Shown here piece by piece: positions 17,338-64,000 of a stretch of 64,000 nucleotides of DNA. The DNA is taken from the NCBI GenBank assembly GCA_020137815.1, contig CM035352.1, positions 1,302,001 to 1,366,000 on the forward strand, in the 5' to 3' direction. The first letter of the stretch is position 1. The number at the start of each line of letters is the position of its first letter. Position numbers and translations under genes: made by a program. The notes beneath the pieces are model-generated. The model was not told the DNA's origin, did no database searches, and was given only the letters and a program-made list of their open reading frames with translations. The DNA is from Hormiphora californensis (Eukaryota; Animalia; Ctenophora).

Positions 17338-17782
17338 AGCAAAAGTACTATATTTAGCACAAAACTTTGGTACTACCCGCATCCTCCATATCCTTAAATC
17401 GATAGTGTTTACGCAGTGAATACAGAGCGAATGCAGAGTGAATGCAGAGCGAATGCAGAGTGAATGCAGAGTGAATGCAGAGCGAATGCAGAGTGAATGC
17501 AGAGCGAATGCAGAGTGAATGCAGAGTGAATGCAGAGTGGTTCCAGAGTGAATACGCAGTGAATGCAGAGTGAATACGCAGTGAATACGCAATCATTGGG
17601 GATATCCTACCAGAACTGTTTACGCAGTGAATACAGAGTGAATACGCAGTGAATACAGAGTGAATACGCAGTGAATGCAGAGCGAATACGCAATCATTGG
17701 TAATATCCTACCAGAACTAGAATGCCGTAAATACGCAGTGATAAAAAAATTGGATATTGTTGCTACAACCCGAAAAAAAGTG

Positions 17783-19528: not shown

Positions 19529-20986
19529 ACAAAACCACTTTTTTTTCGGGTTGTAGCAACAATATCCATTTTTTTTATCACTGCGTATTTACATTCTAGT
19601 ATTTACATTCTAGTTCTGGTAGGATATTACCAATGATTGCGTATTCGCTCTGCATTCACTGCGTATTCGCTCTGTATTCACTGCGTATTCACTCTGTATT
19701 CACTGCGTAAACAGTTCTGGTAGGATATCCCCAATGATTGCGTATTCGCTCTGCATTCACTGCGTATTCGCTCTGTATTCACTGCGTATTCACTCTGTAT
19801 TCACTGCGTAAACAGTTCTGGTAGGATATCCCCAATGATTGCGTATTCACTCTGCATTCACTGCGTATTCACTCTGGAACCACTCTGCATTCACTCTGCA
19901 TTCACTCTGCATTCGCTCTGCATTCACTCTGCATTCGCTCTGCATTCACTCTGCATTCACTCTGCATTCGCTCTGCATTCACTCTGCATTCGCTCTGTAT
20001 TCACTGCGTAAACACTATCGATTTAAGGATATGGAGGATGCGGGTAGTACCAAAACTTTGTACATTTAAAAAATTGGTAAAAGTGTTCCGACTTTCCGAC
20101 CGGGTCCATATGTGATATATTTTGACAGAGGATGTGTTTTTTCTTCAATAATATCATGTCATTGTGTATTAATTTTATGTGTGCTATAATTTTACAGAGC
20201 ACTTGTTAGCGTCATGGAATTGAAACTTTAAAACAAGCTGTTATACAGAGAATCAGATCACAGCCATGTACACAATTCAGTTATTGAGAGAATTGATTAA
20301 TTTAATATGAAATTCAGCGATAATTTTATCAAATTAAGATATTGAATTTGAAAATGAAGGTAAATTTAGTTTACTTTTAGAATAAGTTACACTTTCAGTT
20401 TTTGCTCCAAAATTTGAACTTGACACATTTCAATACAGTCTTTTTATATGCACATTGTGATTGTAACTGAATTTAATTCAAACAAATTGCGATTAAAGAG
20501 TATTGTTTTTCGTTATACTGTATTTAGAATTAAACTCCTAAAAGCATTTGTTAAGTAAGGGGTGGGACACCTCACACCACCTCTTACTCAACCTGTATCA
20601 GTATGGCGCCGCCAATCGCCATACCCCAATGCCCCATTTGATTCTCAATGTGCGCATCCTAATTCAAGTTGGACTAGGATCGGAGTTGAATTTGAATGTT
20701 GAAATATTGTATAGCGAGGGATTGTGATGACAGTTGTCCGTACCAGTAATTTACAGGTTCAGAACGCGTTCGAACGGACAATTAATAAAACGGAACGCGC
20801 CTTTAACTAAATTCTCCGACGCTTCTTGCAAGTGCGCGGCGCGCGCGAAAAATAAAGGATATTTTATTTCCTCAAATTCAAGAATTTGCACTTTTTTGGA
20901 TCAAAAACTCCGCCATTTTCGCCGATTAAATTTTCTTGAGCTGTGCTTGGCCAAGGAATGCAAGAGTTATGTCTTATGACTATAAT

Positions 20987-21514: not shown

Positions 21515-26317
<4,803 letters not shown>

Positions 26318-26607: not shown

Positions 26608-26696
26608 GGTGTAGAACAATATCACATTATCACAAGAGAGCGACCGATGTGGCGGCTTTCCGCCCCCTCGGTCATACCACGGACACGCGCTACACC
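26608..26696 (-). promoter_or_regulatory. SECIS element (type II) in the GPx 3' UTR
   Basis: Minus strand: GGTGTAG..ATGAC-CGAGGGGGCG-GAAA-GCCG-ccacat-CGGT-CGCTCTCTTG-TGAT..CTACACC. UGA/GA core, 10-bp helix II including G-U pairs, AAA bulge, apical mini-stem, helix I; ~200 nt after the stop codon. Confidence 0.88.
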
Positions 26697-26896: not shown

Positions 26897-29800
26897 TTAA
26901 AGATCATCGGATGCGGGTTTAGCCAGAAGAGCTTCAATATCAGGAATAAGGACTTCAGGGTTAACGTTGGGAGCCCACCGCTTGTAGGGCACTCCATTTC
27001 GGTCAGAAAGGAACTTGGTGAAATTCCATTTGATTGAATTTGTTAGAAATCCGGGGAGTTTCTCCTTTAACCACTGTGTGGGGGAGAGAGGGGATTAGAA
27101 TCATAAAATCATAGTTCAATTTCAAACAATTGGGGGGGGGGACAAGAATTGCATGGGGTTATTTGTACTCCTTACTCCACAAGTATTACCTTGTAAAGAG
27201 GAATGGCGGTATCTCCGTTCACGTCAATCTTATGGAACATATCGAATGTTACACCGTATTTGCTCTTGGCCCATGCGAAGATCTCCGCATCGGTTCCGGG
27301 CTCCTGGGATAGGGAAACGTTAGAATAGACAGATGACTGAGGACAACACCTGGTTCACCATGGCCAACTCACCTGAAACCCATTTCTCACTCCTTGGAGC
27401 GTGGGAAGAGTTAGCGCGAGGTAGTCTGGGAACGCGCAATGTGGCGGTTGCGCCCTCCACCCACACACAGAGGACCACACACTTTCAAATTCAGACACAT
27501 CATGCATGATGACTGTATTTATTCGAAATAAGGGCAATGTAGATGAAAATATAGCTCATATAAATGTCAAATATTCAGGTCGATATTGCTACTCTCCTTT
27601 CCCCTGAAATTAAACTGGGACTGGCGGTCGGCGGACACTATAATTACAGATTACAGAAGGGACAGCTGCAGTACCTATATTCTATAACCATGTTTACCTT
27701 GGGGCTCAGACCCCTAACTAGTAACTACTGGTACTGGCGGATAGTATAATATAATACCCATGTATTGATTTGATTTGATAAGAGCGGTTGCCATGGGCGT
27801 GAACCCCTGTTGGGGACCCTACGCACAGGGCCAATCACTTAGTGATACCAGCACCGCTAATGATGGCCGTGAGGTATGAGGGGGCGGTAGTTCCCATTTG
27901 TGGGGCCGACAAGAAATGGGAAGGGTTATGGGGGGGAATAACCCTGGTGGGGAAAGGCGACTGCTGCGGGGGAGGTGAGAGGAGGGTTGCAGCAGTCGTC
28001 TTGGGGATGCGCTGCATTGCACGCTTCAATTTCGTTGAAGCTTGTAAAGATAACGAATGATAACATCGCTATTATTATTGATACACCTTAGCAATGGTTG
28101 ATCTAGGTTTTCTAGTGCTTGAAATGTTAATTTATGACTATTTGGTCTGGTAAGCGCTGCCGGAAGTATTAAAAAAAACTGAAAAACTTAATAACGCCAT
28201 TTCTTTAAGCCCTTGCCAGAGCCGAGTTTTAAATTTTTTATTGTTCTATTTTTGGGCTCGTTTTAAAGCTAACACTATCACTAAGGTCTAAAACATTGAT
28301 GCGGTGCAATATCAGTAAACACTAAGATTTGAACGTCAAAACTTCAAATGTGGCACCCAATTTTCTGAGGTGAGATTGCAACTTCGACAGCACTTGCTAT
28401 TTCTGGTGTCAAGGTGGCAATATATCTTCAACTGGAATACATATAAAAACTGTTTTCCAATCGCAAAATTTCCATACTAAATGGTAGCGCATGTTTTATT
28501 TGGTCCTGACTCGTAATTCGGGGGATAATAGCCAAGTGTCAATCATTATGAATCCTTCTAATGTTAAAGTTATTTTGAAGAATATAGCCAAAAAAGTTCT
28601 TAGTTTTGATGTTCTTAGTTTTAGAGTTCCTTAGTTTTTCTACAGTTTAGAGTTCCTTAGTTTTTCTACAGTTTCTTTCATGATTTTCTTGAAGATTATT
28701 ACCGGTTTACTACAGTGCACCGCGGTAATGTGATCCTCGTGACATTTACGTACATACTTGCTGGATATCATAATTTGATTTGCCAGTAGTTGACATGTGA
28801 AACGATGATCTAATTGGTTCTATATTAAACTCTAAAGGATTTGTCCGCTGAAGTTGTACTTGTAAAACCTCCTCAATTAGGGTGGGCGGGGTGGGGCGGC
28901 GGGGCGGGGTGGCGGGTTTTTATGTTTCCCTGAGTGGTATGTGGAGTACACAGAGAAGCGGGAGCATACAATGTGAACTGATCTGTAGACGTGGAAGTAG
29001 AATTATCAGCTGTTTAAAGAAGGAGATACGCAGGGAGTTAGAGAGCACTGAATTAGAGAGAGAATGAGAGAATAGGGGATATTATAGGGAGCTCGGATTT
29101 GCGGGGAGATAGAGAGTACTGAATTAGAGAGAAAATATTATCTGGCGCTTTTATAAAGTATAGTAATTTGTCAGATATCGTCCCATTTCTGGGCAGCATC
29201 CCATTTCTGGGCATCATCCCTTCGCAGGGCATCATCCCTTCGCAGGGCATCATCCCATTTCTGGGCGCCATCCCTTTGCAGGGCATCATCCCATTGCTGG
29301 GCGGATCCTCGGCGTTAGCCTCGGGCGGGGCGATTCTCTCTAGACTGTGAGAGAGGTGTAGTGAGCGGAAAGAAGATGGTTTATATGGGACACACCGCCC
29401 AGGGCTGCTGCTCTGTTTCCCTGAGTGGTATGTGGAGTACACAGAGAAGCGGGAGCATACAATGTGAACTGATCTGTAGACGTGGAAGTAGAATTATCAG
29501 CTGTTTAAAGAAGGAGATACGCAGGGAGTTAGAGAGCACTGAATTAGAGAGAGAATGAGAGAATAGGGGATATTATAGGGAGCTCGGATTTGCGGGGAGA
29601 TAGAGAGTACTGAATTAGAGAGAGAATATTATCTGGCGCTTTTATAAAGTATAGTAATTTGTCAGATATCGTCCCATTTCTGGGCAGCATCCCATTGCTG
29701 GGCATCATCCCTTCGCAGGGCATCATCCCTTCGCAGGGCATCATCCCATTTCTGGGCGCCATCCCTTTGCAGGGCATCATCCCATTGCTGGGCGGATCCT

Positions 29801-32800
29801 CGGCGTTAGCCTCGGGCGGGGCGATTCTCTCTAGACTGTGAGAGAGGTGTAGTGAGCGGAAAGAAGATGGTTTATATGGGACACACCGCCCAGGGCTGCT
29901 GCTCTGTTTCCCTGAGTGGTATGTGGAGTACACAGAGAAGCGGGAGCATACAATGTGAACTGATCTGTAGACGTGGAAGTAGAATTATCAGCTGTTTAAA
30001 GAAGGAGATACGCAGGGAGTTAGAGAGCACTGAATTAGAGAGAGAATGAGAGAATAGGGGATATTATAGGGAGCTCGGATTTGCGGGGAGATAGAGAGTA
30101 CTGAATTAGAGAGAAAATATTATCTGGCGCTTTTATAAAGTATAGTAATTTGTCAGATATCGTCCCATTTCTGGGCAGCATCCCATTGCTGGGCATCATC
30201 CCTTCGCAGGGCATCATCCCTTCGCAGGGCATCATCCCATTTCTGGGCGCCATCCCTTTGCAGGGCATCATCCCATTGCTGGGCGGATCCTCGGCGTTAG
30301 CCTCGGGCGGGGCGATTCTCTCTAGACTGTGAGAGAGGTGTAGTGAGCGGAAAGAAGATGGTTTATATGGGACACACCGCCCAGGGCTGCTGCTCTGTTT
30401 CCCTGAGTGGTATGTGGAGTACACAGAGAAGCGGGAGCATACAATGTGAACTCATGTAATAAGCTTATATAAGTTCAACATTGCTGACCTGGTTTCCGAA
30501 CTGGTTACAGGGAAAAGCAAGAATGCTAAGTCCCTGGTCTGCGTATTTCTCCTCAAGCTGTTGTAGTTGTCGGTAGTTGATATCGGTCAAACCTCAGTTA
30601 GTCGCCACATTGACCACCAAAGTTACGTTGCCCCTGTAGGGGGAGGGGAGGGGTTAGTTGGGATGAAGTGTTAGTCGCCACATTGACCACCAAAGTTACG
30701 TTGCCCCTGGTATTATAGGGGGAGGGAGGGGTTAGTTGGGGTGAAGTGTTAGTCGCCACATTGACCACCAAAGTTACGTTGCCCCTGTGTAGGGGGAGGG
30801 GAGGGGTTAGTTGGGGTGAAGTGTTAGTCGCCACATTGACCACCAAAGTTACGTTGCCCCTGTAGGGGGAGGGGAGGGGTTAGTTGGGATCAGTGGAGAG
30901 GGAGGGGAGGGGTTAGTTGGGGTGAAGTGTTAGTCGCCACATTGACCACCAAAGTTACGTTGCCCCTGTGGAGGGGGAGGGAGGGGTTAGTTGGGGTGAA
31001 GTGTTAGTCGCCACATTGACCACCAAAGTTACGTTGCCCCTGTACGGGGAGGGGAGGGTTTAGTTGGGGTGAAGTGTTAGTCGCCACATTGACCACCAAA
31101 GTTACGTTGCCCCTGTAGGGGAGGGAGGGGTTAGTTGGGGTGAAGTGTTAGTCGCCACATTGACCACCAAAGTTACGTTGCCCCTGTAGGGGGAGGGAGG
31201 GGTTAGTTGGGGTGAAGTGTTAGTCGCCACATTGACCACCAAAGTTACGTTGCCCCTGTAGAGGGTGGGAGGGGTTAGTTGGGGTGAAGTGTTAGTCGCC
31301 ACATTGACCACCAAAGTTACGTTGCCCCTGTACGGGGAGGGAGGGGTTAGTTGGGGTGAAGTGTTAGTCGCCACATTGACCACCAAAGTTACGTTGCCCC
31401 TGTACGGGGAGGGAGGGGTTAGTTGGGGTGAAGTGTTAGTCGCCACATTGACCACCAAAGTTACGTTGCCCCTGTACGGGGAGGGAGGGGTTAGTTGGGG
31501 TGAAGTGTTAGTCGCCACATTGACCACCAAAGTTACGTTGCCCCTGTGTAGGGGAGGGAGGGAGGGGTTAGTTGGGGTGAAGTGTTAGTCGCCACATTGA
31601 CCACCAAAGTTACGTTGCCCCTGCAGGGGGAGGGAGGGGACGGGGTTAGTTGGGGTGAAGTGTTAGTCGCCACATTGACCACCAAAGTTACGTTGCCCCT
31701 GTAGGGGGAGGGAGGGGAGGGGTTAGTTGGGGTGAAGTGTTAGTCGCCACATTGACCACCAAAGTTACGTTGCCCCTGTAGGGGGAGGGAGGGGTTAGTT
31801 GGGGTGAAGTGTTAGTCACCACATTGACCACCAAAGTTACGTTGCCCCTGTGTAGGGGAGGGAGGGGTCAGTTGGGATGAAGTGTTAGTCGCCACATTGA
31901 CCACCAAAGTTACGTTGCCCCTGTACGGGGAGGGAGGGGTTAGTTGGGGTGAAGTGTTAGTCGCCACATTGACCACCAAAGTTACGTTGCCCCTGTAGGG
32001 GGAGGGAGGGGAGGGGTTAGTTGGGGTGAAGTGTTAGTCGCCACATTGACCACCAAAGTTACGTTGCCCCTGTTATAGAGGGAGGGGAGGGGTTAGTTGG
32101 GGTGAAGTGTTAGTCGCCACATTGACCACCAAAGTTACGTTGCCCCTGTACGGGGAGGGAGGGGTTAGTTGGGGTGAAGTGTTAGTCGCCACATTGACCA
32201 CCAAAGTTACGTTGCCCCTGTAGGGGGAGGGAGGGGTTAGTTGGGGTGAAGTGTTAGTCGCCACATTGACCACCAAAGTTACGTTGCCCCTGTGTAGGGG
32301 GAGGGAGGGGTTAGTTGGGGTTAAGTGTTAGTCGCCACATTGACATTTGACCACCAAAGTTACGTTGCCCCTGTAGGGGGAGGGAGGGGAGGGGTTAGTT
32401 GGGGTGAAGTGTTAGTCGCCACATTGACCACCAAAGTTACGTTGCCCCTGTACGGGGAGGGAGGGGGTTAGTTGGGGTGAAGTGTTAGTCGCCACATTGA
32501 CCACCAAAGTTACGTTGCCCCTGTTATAGGGGGAGGGAGGGGTTAGTTGGGGTGAAGTGTTAGTCGCCACATTGACCACTAAAGTTACGTTGCCCCTGTA
32601 GGGGGAGGGAGGGGGTTAGTTGGGATGAAGTGTTAGTCGCCACATTGACCACCAAAGTTACGTTGCCCCTGTAGGGGGAGGGAGGGGGTTAAAAAACCTT
32701 GAGTCTGGTGAAGCTGTGAGTGGTATATTGAGTCGCTTGACACTGGTTCCCGTGCTCCACAATTCAAGTGGTATACTAGGATGAGCGGTAGAGGAGGGAA

Positions 32801-34605
32801 ATCACGGTGCCCCCTAGGGTGTGTCAAGCAGGGTATAAGTAATGGGGCGATGGGTTGTAAATGGGGAGCTAAGAGGGGATTCCTGACAGGAACAGCCCTA
32901 GAGGGTGTGTGAGATGGGCTGTCACTTGCCATCATCTATTCATGGGAAAATAGGGAGGGGGAACTTTTATAAAAACAAGAAATATCTGAAATTTCACCAA
33001 AAACACCAATTTCTAACAACTTACTTGTACTTGGAGAGCTGCTGTTGATTCTCTAGAATATCAACAGCATTGAATTCGTATACCGATGAATACTGAAAGG
33101 GAGATTAGTGTATTGGAATAGTTGTGGACATGGACAATGGAAACACATTCGGGGAGAGCAGTCATTGTGAAAGAACATTCTGAACACATTGAGAGCACGT
33201 GTGCTTTGTAGCATTCTCATTTCTCAAGGATCTGCAGTCAATGAATGAACACATGTTCACTACCTTGCTGAAAAGATGGAACAAAACACTAGATACACAA
33301 CCCATGACACAGTGCAAAAGTAACTGTGGCAACTCTGAACAAATTTACACCAGCTGTGCAGATTTCAAAGAAGATCCCCCCATGTGATGAAAGAGTAATG
33401 GAAGAGAGGGTGAAACACAGGGTTCTCTTCTATAGAGACAATACTAATGACCACATATTTAGCAACCAAACTATCGGCTGGTCAAACACTGTATCCTACG
33501 ATTGATCCGGCTGCAGTTTTATGTTTTAGAGACGGAGACAGTGGTGGCTACTAGGTATTGAGTAAGTAGACTATGAACACGTGCTCAAAAAGCAAGATAA
33601 TTAATTTGAATGGTGGGGCTGCTCAGGGTACATGAAGTCACAGAGGAGCATATCAATTAATCAATCATCATGGCCAACTTACATCGTCGGGATTAAATAT
33701 AGTGGAGGCTGCTACGAGCCACGTCCAAAACGTCTGTGCAGCCATAGTGTCACACAAACGAGAAGTAACGATCTGGTTATAGCAGCTAGTTTTATAGCCC
33801 TCTTATCTTTATCTCTCTCACTCTCTCTCTCTCTCTCTTTTTTCTCTCTCTCTCTCACTCACTCATTATCTCTGTTTGCCGTGAGAAGTCACGCGATTCT
33901 AACCGTCGTCTCACGCCACACAAAGTCACCAGATGTGTTTGGTTGATAACACGTACCAGAGAAGTGCGTCCGAAACAAAAGATTCGCTCTGTGTGTTTTT
34001 TGTGGAAAGGTGTTGTGCTAAGTGCTTCATTTGCTAAACAAAGTCTCCAAGTTCCCGCAAATACAATCACGCCTTTGTTAGGTGAAATTCGATCAAGATT
34101 CAAGGGGAATTGGATTCTTCATAGATCATTTCCATACCTCTCTTTCTCTCTCTCTCTCTAGACTAAACATCTCTCTAGACTAAACATTAAGTACTTTTAG
34201 GCAGCGGCTTTTTTAAACAAACATTTCAGGTGTCAGATACCACGTAGGCGTGTTAAATACAAATAAACACAATGGACACTGGCAGTTTGACGAGCCCACT
34301 CTTGGCTCTTGCCCTGTTTGACAGGGTTTGAACAAAACAATCCCACTCGCATTGTTCGACCCCCTCTCTCCGCGGTACCCCACAACAATATAAAGGATGC
34401 TTAGAACATAACAAAAAGCCCAGAAACGGAAATACCCAGTAACATGCAAGCAGCTGCAGGAACGAACTTTTTTAAGGAGTTGTTTTTTGGACAGTTTTGT
34501 AGCTTCCGTTTCCACTTCAGGAGCAGCGGTCTCTGCCCCGCCCCCACAGGCACCTCCTCCACCCTGGGCCGAGCAGGTCTGTTCCTCTTTCTTTTTGAGG
34601 AACAT
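26897..34605 (-). CDS. GPX4-like: Selenocysteine glutathione peroxidase, GPx4/PHGPx-like; N-terminus may extend further upstream
   Basis: Exons 34605-34468, 33092-33025, 30633-30489, 27303-27190, 27073-26897, with consistent phases. [28 protein letters not shown](TGA 30594-30596)[10 protein letters not shown]..[31 protein letters not shown]; ends PASDDL*. Confidence 0.93.
28923..30452. repeat. 491-bp tandem repeat, ~3.1 near-identical copies, each with an internal 18-bp subrepeat
   Basis: The ORF track recurs at 491-bp spacing (29053/29544/30035); GGCATCATCCC-N7 subunits; lies in a GPx intron. Confidence 0.95.
30597..32690 (-). repeat. Minisatellite of 28 ~72-bp units, each a GPx 3' splice site plus the first 37 nt of the Sec exon
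   Basis: Minus-strand unit ACTTCACCCCAACTAACCCCTCCC(TCCCC)CTACAG|GGGCAACGTAACTTTGGTGGTCAATGTGGCGACTAAC; 28 copies counted by hand; the last copy continues into TGA GGT TTG ACC. Confidence 0.95.
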
Positions 34606-35348: not shown

Positions 35349-36858
35349 TAGTCCAGGCAAAGTTCGATTTAAAATCGGCATTTCTGCAAAAAAGCAAATT
35401 CCGGTTGATTTTGGTCAATTCGAGTACGCTGATTACGACTATAAACTTTTAGTGAACTTTTTCGTTGAGGAAAGTGGCTTAATTGGCCTTAATTGGTCAA
35501 AATTTAAAATGTGTCTAAAATTTATTCTGCATAGCTCAAAAAATCGGAAAAAATTATCGAAAAAATATTTCCAGATTTTATTTGTGTCGAAAATAGGCGG
35601 AATTGGCCTAATTGGGCTTAATTGGGCTTGATTACTGGAATTTAAAGTTTATTCTGCATAGCTCAAAAAATCGGGAGAAATTCACTGATTACCGGAAAAA
35701 TATTTTCAGATTTTATTTGTGTCGAAACTAGGCGGAATTGGCCTAATTGGGCTTAATTGGGCTTGATTACTGGAATTTAAAGTTTATCAAAAATGGATTT
35801 TATATAACTTAAAAAATCGAGAAAAATAAGCTGATTATCAAAAAAATACTCTTTGAATTTATTTTTGTCTCAATTAGACGGTAGAGCTAATTAAAAACCA
35901 ATTAAATCACCCAGTTGGTGTTGCGCAACATAATATGAGCCTCAGGAATGTAAAACTGAACTTAATTAGCCAATTCCTTCACTAATGTGTCCCCAAGGGT
36001 CTCCCCTATCTAGTAGGGTCAGAGGGGTATATTATGAGGCGTGAGAGGTATCTCCAAAATGCCGATTTTTACGATTTTCAGTTTCTCGCCTACAGCTACA
36101 GCACATGCAGTGTGCATGCACAATAGCCCGGAAATGAACATGTTGCACCTCGCACAGAATGTTAGGGTTTTCTATTGTATAAGGGGAGACCCTTAGGGAC
36201 ACATTAGTGAAGGAATTAGCTTATTAAGTTCAGTTTTACATTCCTGAGGCTCATATTATGTTGCGCAACACCAATTGGTTGATTCAATTGGTTTTTAATT
36301 AGCTCTACCGTCTAATTGAGACAAAAATAAATTCAAAGAGTATTTTTCTGATAATCAGCTTATTTTTCTCGATTTTTTAAGCTATATAAAATCCATTTTT
36401 GATAAACTTTAAATTCCAGTAATCAAGCCCAATTAAGCCCAATTAGGCCAATTCCGCCTAGTTTCGACACAAATAAAATCTGAAAATATTTTTCCGATAA
36501 TCAGTGAATTTCTCCCGATTTTTTGAGCTATGCATAATAAACTTTAAATTCCAGTAATCAAGCCCAATTAAGCCCAATTAGGCCAATTCCGCCTATTTTC
36601 GACACAAATAAAATCTGGAAATATTTTTCCGATAATCAGTGAATTTTTTCCGATTTTTTGAGCTATGCAGAATAAATTTTAGACACATTTTAAATTTTGA
36701 CCAATTAAGGCCAATTAAGCCACTTTCCTCAACGAAAAAGTTCACTAAAAGTTTATAGTCGTGATCAGCGTACTCGAATTGACCAAAATCAACCGGAATT
36801 TGCTTTTTTGCAGAAATGCCGAAATTTGGCCTATTTTTTTAGAACTTTTACTGGACTA
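35349..36858. mobile_element. Foldback-type non-autonomous DNA element with ~640-bp inverted arms
   Basis: ~35366-36006 is the near-perfect reverse complement of ~36183-36822; termini TAGTCCAG...CTGGACTA; flanking GTA (or TA) duplication; internal ~130-bp direct repeats. Confidence 0.85.
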
Positions 36859-38272: not shown

Positions 38273-41200
38273 ATGCTGTTGAGGTTGACTCAATTTCGCG
38301 CGTTACATACAGATGCAGCGCGCAATTCAATCTGAAATGAATGACACGAATGAAAATTCTTTTCTGTTTTTTAGACATTGTTTTTCTTCTTTTTAACTTT
38401 CTTTAACTCTTTGAAAAGCGCTGCCTTATCAGTTATCGGGGGCCAGCAACGTTTGCCAATTTAACTATGATCTTTCATCTTGTATTGCTGTTTTTGCCAT
38501 GCACTTCGGCTTCTGCCAGATAGATTTCCTACAATTCAACTTAGAAGCTATAATTTTAAAATTTAAGTCAGCCAACAAATAACAATTGCAGTCCTACATA
38601 ATTTACATTTACTAATTAAATTCTAGGTTCCATGAAGTGCAATGCATGGCCAGGGAACGTACACTAGACGGCTGACTGCCAAAGGAGCAAAATGGGCTGT
38701 CATGGCCACTGCCGGTGTAGGGGGTATGAAACTGGTGAGATGAGTTTGTACAATCAAGTCCATGTTTTCACTTCTTAGGATTATCATGAGCCTAAGAATC
38801 ATACTATGTACCTGAATACCAGTCCTACAGATAGAAACTCAGATAGAAACTAATATAATCTGATATTTTAGGCGAGTAATAAAATCGAGGAAACTCATGC
38901 TGATGTCTCACAACGATTGAGCTTACCATTTGATACAATCGCCGGCGGTGTCAACTCTCTTGGAACCCAACTCAAGATCTATAAAAATAAAGGTAAGCAC
39001 GAATACATGACACTCATTAGTCTCAATGTGAAGTTAATTCTGTTTCTTTAGGACAACGGTTGTACGATGAATTAAAAGTGTCCGATCCTTTCTCAACATC
39101 ATCAGGTAACTGCCCAAATCTGTCAAAAACTCTCTGACTTTGTAACTTTGTACTGCCCAAAATCTGAAAGCACGTTACCACCACCGTCTCTATCAGTGAT
39201 TTTTACCACGTGTGTCTTTGTTTCCCGGTTTCTTGCACATCAGGTTACAGTCTGCTAACTACAGCAGGTCCACCTGGGATACCTCCCTCCTCTGCTCCTG
39301 CTACGACGGGAGAAACAAAGAAAGAACAGAAACCAGAGATTAAAATAACAGAGGTAAACATATGCTATGTTTGAGATGTATAACATAATGTGTCATTGTT
39401 TGGCATACATGTACATGATGTAGAGAAAATCTGAAACCTCTACACGTCACCCACTGATTGGTATGTGAGCTCCCTCCTCTTTCAGATTGTTAAGCCGGTT
39501 GTAAAGGATATACAGGTGGACACATCTGCATTGGAGGAACTGGCTAAGGTAAGCGACAACTCCCCAGTCCCCACCACTTCATAGCTCAAATAATAATTAA
39601 CCGCATCAGTCATGAATCGCTAATAACGGTATGATCGTTTTGTCATGATTAGCATTTTCAAGTAATTTGATAATTTGAACTGTTTGTTTCCCTGTTAGAA
39701 AGAGGAGGAGAAAGAGGAATTGCAAAGAAGGGAAGCAGAGCGACAAGCAGCTGCGGAACAGGAGGCAGCTTTGGCAGCGAAGCAAGCAGAGCGGGAGGCA
39801 GAATTGGCGGCTGCAGCGAGGCAAGCAGAGCGGGAGGTAGAATTGGCGGCTGCAGCGAGGCAAGCAGAGCGGGAGGCAAAAGAAGCAGCGGAGGCTGCAG
39901 CTGCAGAACAGGCTGAACAAAGAGCACAGATTGAGGAGGAGAATAGAAAGCTGAAGGAAGAACTCAACACCGCTGAGTCCGTGAGTAGTACCCCGTCTTG
40001 TGTGATTAGGGTATGATTGATCGGACGGTGTGTGTGACGTGTGTGTGTGACGTGTGTGATCGGGCGATGTGTGTGAAATGTGTGAGTGCTACGATCTGAA
40101 CTCTCTTGCTGACACACTCTTTCCTGTCGTGGCCATTAGGTCCGGATCGCTAAGGAAGAACTTGAAGCCGCAAATGAAGCATTGAAAACATCGCTAATGT
40201 CATTGAAAGCCGTAAGCACCTCTAGTAACCATGGTAACATTGTTCTGTTACCATGGTAACGCTTTACTTTTACCATAGTAACGCTACGTTTTTTACTGTT
40301 TACCACGTTATTATGTGTTTCAGGAATCTCACAAAACAGAAACAGAACTGAGGAAAGAACTGTTGAAGCTGCAGGAAAATTACAAGCGAGAGTTGGACAG
40401 GATCAGGGGTGAGAACGATAAACTAAAGTATCTGGTGAAGAATTCAACTGTCAAAACCACCACTGTCAAGGTATTATACCAAGGAGTATTTAACTGTAAT
40501 ACTGAGTAACAAAGTGAGGTCACCACTTTGTATGAATCATGTCCACTGTTCAGATTTGTGAACAGTTCTATGAACTGCTCACTGAAAGTTACTTACACAC
40601 TATCGAGCTAGGTTCTCTTCATTGCTAATTGCTGCTCAACTGTTGTTATGGTAGCAATTATATTGTTCAAGTATATTGCTATCTATAGCGAACAGAGAGG
40701 CTAATTGTTTGCTGCAGTAGTAGTACACTCCATGAAGTGGAGAGCAATTATGTTTACCAAGAGTGTAACCAGCCATGAACTGACTTCTAACTCCTCCCCC
40801 TAGAAATCTATAATTGACATATAACTCCTCCCCCTAGAAATCTATAATTCACATCTAACTCCTCCCCCTAGAAATCTATAATTGACATGTATGCGGATGT
40901 TCTAGACACCTTGTCGGATAACGACAACTCGTACAGCGTCCACGACCACCTCCCTCGGATCGTGGTGGTAGGAGATCAGAGCGCTGGAAAAACGAGTGTT
41001 CTAGAAATGGTCGTCAGGGCACGTATCTTCCCCAGGTACATCTTGTTTCATAGAGAGTGATGCGAGAACAAAATTTGAACTTGTTATGTAGGGGGCATAA
41101 AATGTCCAGCACTCTCCCGTGCTACAATATCTACTACTAACAGCTCTGTACTAACAGATCTCTAATTAATTACCCAGGGGACATGGTGAGATGATGACCA

Positions 41201-46261: not shown

Positions 46262-64000
<17,739 letters not shown>

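Follow-up and report, generated by a model that had tools for sequence, protein, structure and literature searches.

A GPx gene in the stretch of ctenophore DNA analysed here (64,000 nucleotides; hereafter the window) carries 28 tandem copies of a unit in which the 3' end of intron 2 is followed by the 37 nt with which exon 3 begins (Table 1). The array is real, well formed, and unusually long, but it is of an already known type, the mirage minisatellite. In our view it is probably tolerated, the 27 upstream copies being spliced out with intron 2 so that a normal mRNA is left.

The array and its host gene

The exon starts of the 28 copies lie on the minus strand from 32668 (first) to 30633 (last). 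Among the 27 spacings between them 72 nt occurs nine times, 73 nt five times, 77 nt four times, 75 and 78 nt twice each, and 71, 74, 76, 81, and 106 nt once each, the last spacing being 73 nt. Every copy has CAG before the exon start, and a motif like CTAAC, TTAAC, or CTGAC lies 19-42 nt upstream of it in 28/28 copies and within 19-31 nt in 27/28. The exon starts are identical across the 37 nt in 25 of the 28 copies and 20 of the 27 units are distinct, mainly through changes in the length of the C run. The main row for this array had a TRF score of 2988, by which chance is excluded by far. Only the last copy reaches the Sec TGA and the other 27 break off before it. The structure given in the initial annotation, namely 28 copies of an acceptor plus exon start with a modal unit of 72 nt and a last spacing of 73 nt, was borne out by the copy listing, and in the sequence the copies do break, as it had stated, exactly before the Sec TGA with the most 3' copy continuing into it. 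It had also placed a CTAAC-like motif in every unit. The motif is there in all 28, but the first copy has TTAAC and lacks the 17-nt segment ending in CTAAC that belongs to the unit.

Straight translation from each of the 27 upstream AGs runs into a stop, in 23 cases in the exon-start segment and in four in the intronic part. The shifted frames had been said to stop inside the exon-start segment, and this is right for the 23 but not for copies 6, 7, 8, and 24, in which the stop is intronic. That any upstream AG would give a truncated product agrees with the 27/27 stops on read-through, but it presumes that there is no second splice within the array. The unit length is a multiple of 3 in 14 of the 27 units; selection for frame was considered and rejected, because the 72-nt mode accounts for this number.

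The exon word that ends at the break is ACTAAC, which is the same as the branch-site word, and this short homology may have favoured a break before the Sec codon. It is suggestive only: the sharing of these 6 nt is tied with that of two other 6-nt exon words, and the match is found 11 nt into the intronic portion of the unit, away from the unit junction. The position of the break before the Sec TGA is most likely a single coincidence and incidental; in the other two arrays of the window there is nothing remarkable about the site of the break. The unit spans an exon-intron boundary, is 71-106 nt long, and carries duplicated splice signals, as in mirage minisatellites. Intron gain by tandem duplication of AG|GT does not apply, since the GPx unit has CAG|GGGC.

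Table 1. Positions of the features discussed, in window coordinates
Feature	Position	Strand	Remarks
GPx minisatellite	30597..32690	-	branch-like motif, C-rich tract, CAG, and 37 exonic nt; units 71-106 nt, mode 72
GPx exon 1, form a	34468..34605	-	first coding, 46 codons; matches the N-terminus of P0033, which goes on into exon 2
GPx alternative first exon, form b	33683..33770	-	ATG at 33745; joint 33683 to 33092 in X11, near-identical joint in X8
GPx exon 2	33025..33092	-	68 nt; donor GTAAGT at 33025; joints in RNA run X11
GPx true exon 3	30489..30633	-	145 nt; after the last acceptor; donor CAG|GTCAGC
GPx exon 4	27190..27303	-	agrees with P0032 and P0033
GPx exon 5, coding part to TAA stop	26897..27073	-	100% identity to P0001 over 58 aa
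SECIS-like element, 3' UTR	26619..26686	-	AUGA/GA core, AAA bulge, extra mini-stem
OPA1 mirage	40781..40888	+	acceptor plus 17-nt exon start, 34 nt x3
Formin mirage	63740..64000	+	acceptor plus 9-12-nt exon start (VSL/VSLD), 38-43 nt units, at least 7 acceptors, cut by the window edge

By similarity, rather than by a tree, the gene is that of a GPX4-like selenoprotein in which Sec insertion is predicted. The PF00255 domain was found on P0001, whose cluster (n=5) includes a protein labelled Pleurobrachia bachei and also P0033. The latter, from a 983-nt contig, runs from exon 1a through exon 5 with one exon-start copy and with W at the TGA position, and its best PDB matches are of the GPX4 type (E 5e-47 for a chain named PHGPx versus 4e-24 for GPX1). 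The in-frame TGA (Sec) is at 30596-30594 and falls opposite the catalytic C in the alignment to the matched PDB chain; the relatives show W at this position and one shows C. The W in the relatives presumably comes from the gene caller translating TGA. The SECIS-like hairpin matches Rfam SECIS_1 over its full length with the core intact, although the score of 22.3 bits (E 0.067) is below the gathering score of 35. The gene is like GPX4/PHGPx in PDB ranking and catalytic TGA, with the SECIS-like hairpin as a putative third feature, and what sets it apart are its two alternative first exons. Form b is hydrophobic and has 21 codons, like the N-termini of the relatives (it resembles P0003 and P0005), and form a is charged and has 46; the two may give differently targeted isoforms. 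In one cluster of related GPx proteins P0065 and P0009 differ at the catalytic position, where one has Cys and the other W, read as TGA, which would be a possible Sec/Cys exchange. An exact 22-nt pattern from the exon start was found in 0 stretches of the metagenome contigs, and a protein-level scan of these contigs (2 of 64 parts) gave at least 80 loci with 49-62% identity, none of which entered the conclusions.

The array in other samples and the spliced RNA of relatives

Of 23 sequencing runs listed, seven were compared with two stretches of the window, each of which holds one array unit. In DNA run X4 unit variants were found together with the boundary between the first copy and the intron sequence upstream of it; X4 is possibly the source sample and hence no independent witness, and its lack of cover on 30453-30596 is no proof of absence. 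DNA run X5, which is from another sample and another study, has a contig in which the exon start is continued by intronic sequence of the unit. It has unit length variants like those of the window and also one variant that is absent from the window, a loose end at 32687. The last copy in X5 continues into the TGA with three differences, one of which is synonymous and lies at 30600. This change removes the CTAAC word from the true exon, whereas the commonest decoy contig retains it. Unit variants turn up in DNA from two samples, which means that the array is no artefact; that it, or most of its length, arose in the assembly is very unlikely. The number of 28 copies is known from the assembly alone, with contig depth giving no copy number and no record spanning the whole array, and to this extent an artefact would fit, but 20 of the 27 units differ from one another, and both the unit variants and first-copy junction in X4, possible source sample though it is, and the passage from exon start into intron in X5 argue against it.

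How the junction is spliced was read from RNA contigs. In record 1 of RNA run X11 (788 nt) an uninterrupted sequence leads from exon 1b through exon 2 and one copy of the 37 nt to the TGA. X8, which is RNA by guess, has two shorter contigs in agreement with this: one links exon 2 with the exon start, and the second crosses the 37 nt and enters the TGA. Both runs have four differences in exon 2 and these are the ones seen in X5, which carries the array. The RNA of X8 and X11 is from environmental samples, and the animals behind these two runs and P0033 are relatives that may or may not carry the array. Matching contigs came from two of six RNA or RNA-guess runs and none came from X6, X7, and X10, where a zero can be false. 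Contigs lose rare variants and cannot reveal forms degraded by NMD; that X8 and X11 have no contig over the intronic part of the first decoy (32597-32631) was not counted as evidence, and their bin depths, 4.21 and 23.1, are 34/69 of the depth of a single contig.

Because the X11 contig runs unbroken through the repeated word, the way in which contigs are built suggests that decoy-containing forms are not abundant in the X11 sample, and because the mRNA contig of a relative has a single copy, the spare copies are likely removed with the intron. Normal GPx splicing is shown for close relatives, and strict use of the last AG is likely in the array carrier. The initial annotation had offered strict choice of the last acceptor by exon definition as one possibility. 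Use of the last acceptor fits X11 and also the mirage and CBS cases described below, but exon definition stands only as its presumed cause. A protein search with exon 1a returned two proteins, both of which are unspliced read-throughs into intron 1, and neither of the two has an array peptide.

Acceptor choice and the competing readings

Tandem duplications of the 3' end of an intron together with the 5' part of the exon are described for amphioxus globin genes in the available text of PMC3087553, which also cites Adh3 as the origin of the term mirages, with units of 10-72 bp, undisturbed splicing, and length instability. For Adh3 the instability is reported to be somatic, and a copy number that differs between haplotypes counts among the mirage features. 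Mirages occur in troponin C and PGBD5 as well and splicing is likewise undisturbed there, according to the part of PMC3902484 that was available. The amphioxus mirages (Adh3, BflGb6, BflGb9, troponin C, and PGBD5) and the GPx array are alike in having units of intron end plus exon start, spare splice signals, and several loci in a genome. The GPx units of 71-106 nt fall within the amphioxus range, which goes from 10-72 bp in Adh3 to 150-160 bp in the globins (PMC3087553, same text), and the normal mRNA reported in amphioxus would have its counterpart in the normal junction of the X11 contig and of P0033, both from relatives. The GPx array differs in that its host is a ctenophore, its gene codes for a selenoprotein, and its copies number 28 as against 3-6 in BflGb6. 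The Adh3 mirage of amphioxus was reportedly first described by Canestro et al. 2002, and Romano et al. 2002 is said to deal with human CBS 844ins68. In that CBS allele an acceptor junction is duplicated (68 bp) and the distal of the two acceptors is used, giving normal mRNA, as stated in the portions of PMC2630376 and PMC1802585 at hand; there are two copies in place of 28, and in CBS it has been shown that G runs drive the choice. The 37-bp VNTR in intron 7 of human F7 was seeded on an exon/intron boundary and its identical spare sites are silent though functional (PMC1557585, available text). It is on the donor side and its first site is used, whereas the GPx array is on the acceptor side and its last site is apparently the one used. 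Going by their listings, our literature searches gave nothing closer than these cases, and no ctenophore mirage was found in the literature searched for ctenophore minisatellites at splice sites; the accessible parts of PMC8527503 and PMC9925728 mention no such arrays.

The array would have begun with one local tandem duplication across the intron 2/exon 3 junction, and slippage or unequal crossing-over would then have expanded it. The last AG would win by exon definition, since no other copy has the remainder of the exon behind it and a usable donor at a distance of 145 nt. Nothing in the acceptor marks the last copy (CAG in 28/28; the branch-like motif within 19-31 nt in 27/28), which is a point against this reading, and by RNA folding with three window sizes the last acceptor was no more accessible than the decoys. 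Neither sequence nor predicted accessibility tells the acceptors apart, so it must be the downstream context that decides between them. The sole donor-like word in the unit, AAC|GTAACT, would be weak: among correctly placed donors without G at -1, eight of eight have G at +5, and the word in the unit has neither. On the other side, a crude position matrix gave 6.6 to GTAACT of the unit and 6.4 to the true donor, a point against a weak donor. A further point, against the use of the last AG, is that pairing across short introns would favour the first AG, which is 356 nt from the exon 2 donor while the last is 2391 nt from it, and the introns of the GPx gene and of OPA1 are mostly a few hundred bases or less. 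Rare use of an upstream AG would lead to stop-containing RNAs, which NMD would remove by the rule set out in the available text of PMC4105750. If NMD clears such leaks, then the array would be cheap to carry rather than regulatory.

The opposite reading is that decoy splicing is regulated, such that the upstream AGs are used more often the higher the copy number or the lower the selenium, and selenoprotein output is tuned by way of NMD. We regard this as unlikely. It would agree with all 27 upstream AGs being intact and leading to stops, with the break exactly before the TGA, with the presence of the array in two samples, and with the synonymous change at 30600 in X5, by which the true exon alone loses the branch-like word. 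However, X11, the sole informative RNA contig, crosses a single copy unbroken, and it is normally spliced with the codon at 30600 unchanged. Moreover, exons of OPA1 and formin, which are not selenoprotein genes, carry the same kind of array, and therefore the architecture is not special to selenocysteine. Some 105 nt separate the Sec UGA from the junction that follows, and by the 50-55-nt rule (PMC4105750, in the part available) the normal GPx mRNA would be an NMD candidate already without the array. The same text reports that in mammalian cells GPx4 mRNA, unlike that of GPx1, is unresponsive to selenium and to SMG1 knockdown. The sensitivity of GPx mRNAs to NMD, on which the initial annotation had relied, is thus correct for GPx1, but the analogy is weakened because the gene is GPX4-like and the mammalian GPx4 is insensitive. 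Its proposal that copy number tunes selenoprotein output through decoys and NMD found no support, with exons without Sec being alike and only the productive junction being seen in the contigs. A fuller version of this proposal makes the 27 acceptors a tunable leak: the more copies or the less selenium, the greater the loss, with the break ahead of the Sec codon retained as a guaranteed Sec-less dead end. This version is no more likely. If it were true, a polymorphic minisatellite would set the dose of a selenoprotein in a ctenophore; the array would amount to a new mechanism only if use of the upstream acceptors proved to be regulated.

Another way to arrive at the same normal mRNA is a CBS-like, sequence-specific silencing of the upstream acceptors in place of plain exon definition, for example through a protein that binds G or C runs which the duplication has brought together. 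The available text of PMC1802585 states that G runs between the identical acceptors of CBS 844ins68 promote the distal one, and in the GPx array every unit has GGGG at its acceptor as well as long runs of C. But the GGGG run and the C tract flank the last acceptor too, which is apparently the one used, folding gave no difference in accessibility, and the OPA1 and formin units are without such a G run. We therefore consider silencing improbable. Still less likely are alternative cassette exons, in which an upstream AG would pair with GTAACT of the next copy to insert 78-84 nt in frame, or 26-28 residues, before Sec: these are open on paper in six of 26 neighbouring pairs and the matrix score of 6.6 is in their favour, but the site has neither G at -1 nor G at +5, the two proteins from the exon 1a search show no array peptide, and extra residues immediately ahead of the catalytic one would be likely to disrupt the thioredoxin fold.

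With the array read as a tolerated mirage, mirage minisatellites are extended to ctenophores. The array is also a natural construct of 28 near-identical acceptors of which apparently the last alone is used, and as such it offers a clean test of 3' splice site choice in an early-branching animal whose introns are for the most part short. Over 37 nt a junction read matches all copies alike, and for this reason arrays of this kind can lead gene prediction and short-read mapping of junctions astray.

Other arrays and neighbouring features of the window

In the OPA1 array the last AG (exon start 40872) opens a conserved exon and the two upstream AGs lead to TAA. The closest named full-length relatives of this exon by identity are from Bolinopsis and Mnemiopsis (89%). 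Together with the Pleurobrachia bachei label in the GPx cluster, this leads us to read the window as that of a Pleurobrachia-type ctenophore. The boundary of the OPA1 unit fits short homology, with TGACAT in the exon and TGACTT in the intron. In the formin homolog P0232, VSLD comes directly after the preceding exon, as one copy encodes. The formin units contain CAG|GT, an arrangement that permits exact removal of the extra copies by intron gain or stepwise splicing. A functional role is more plausible for the formin array than for the GPx one. With three such arrays in 64 kb, mirages would seem to be common in this genome.

The 18-mer across the junction has a further occurrence no more than 1.5 kb away at 3 of the 45 acceptors and at none of the 43 donors, as against 45 of 400 random positions, a background that includes the arrays themselves. 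There is no evident enrichment of repeats at junctions in this list, which was made by hand from five genes after the arrays were seen, with other genes left out, and in which 3 of the 45 acceptors are not on an AG and about 4 of the 43 donors are off by a few bases. Tandem repeats with a period of at least 14 cover 12% of the window. Several were rejected as mirages: the one at 52561 is intronic in the cathepsin gene, those at 48045 and 25259 end before the AG, and those at 51448, 11054, 809, and 7118 have no following exon that was found. Tandem segments like a branch site or a pyrimidine tract, falling short of or lacking an exon start, are at 25259-25332 (+) and 51448-51649 (-).

Intron 3 of the GPx gene holds a 491-bp unit repeated 3.1 times with 99% identity (28923-30452), which begins 37 nt after the exon 3 donor and excludes that donor. 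The unit contains an 18-nt sub-repeat in seven copies, and the repeat either arose very recently or is a duplication made in assembly. A large inverted repeat with internal tandem units of 135 nt, MITE- or foldback-like, lies at 35400-36800, upstream of the GPx gene. At 17415-17718 and 19612-20005, long inverted arms made of 11-nt and 101-nt repeats enclose a 2-kb stretch that has a 179-aa ORF with a zinc-knuckle-like motif and a (GAGATA)n tract. This element looks like a transposon remnant. A gene of the papain family (cathepsin L-like) lies on the minus strand at about 47900-53100. It is apparently nested antisense in a formin intron, as a weak formin match at 47250-47393 (E 0.27) would indicate, and it ends in C-terminal cysteine-rich exons, which we take to be ShK-like.
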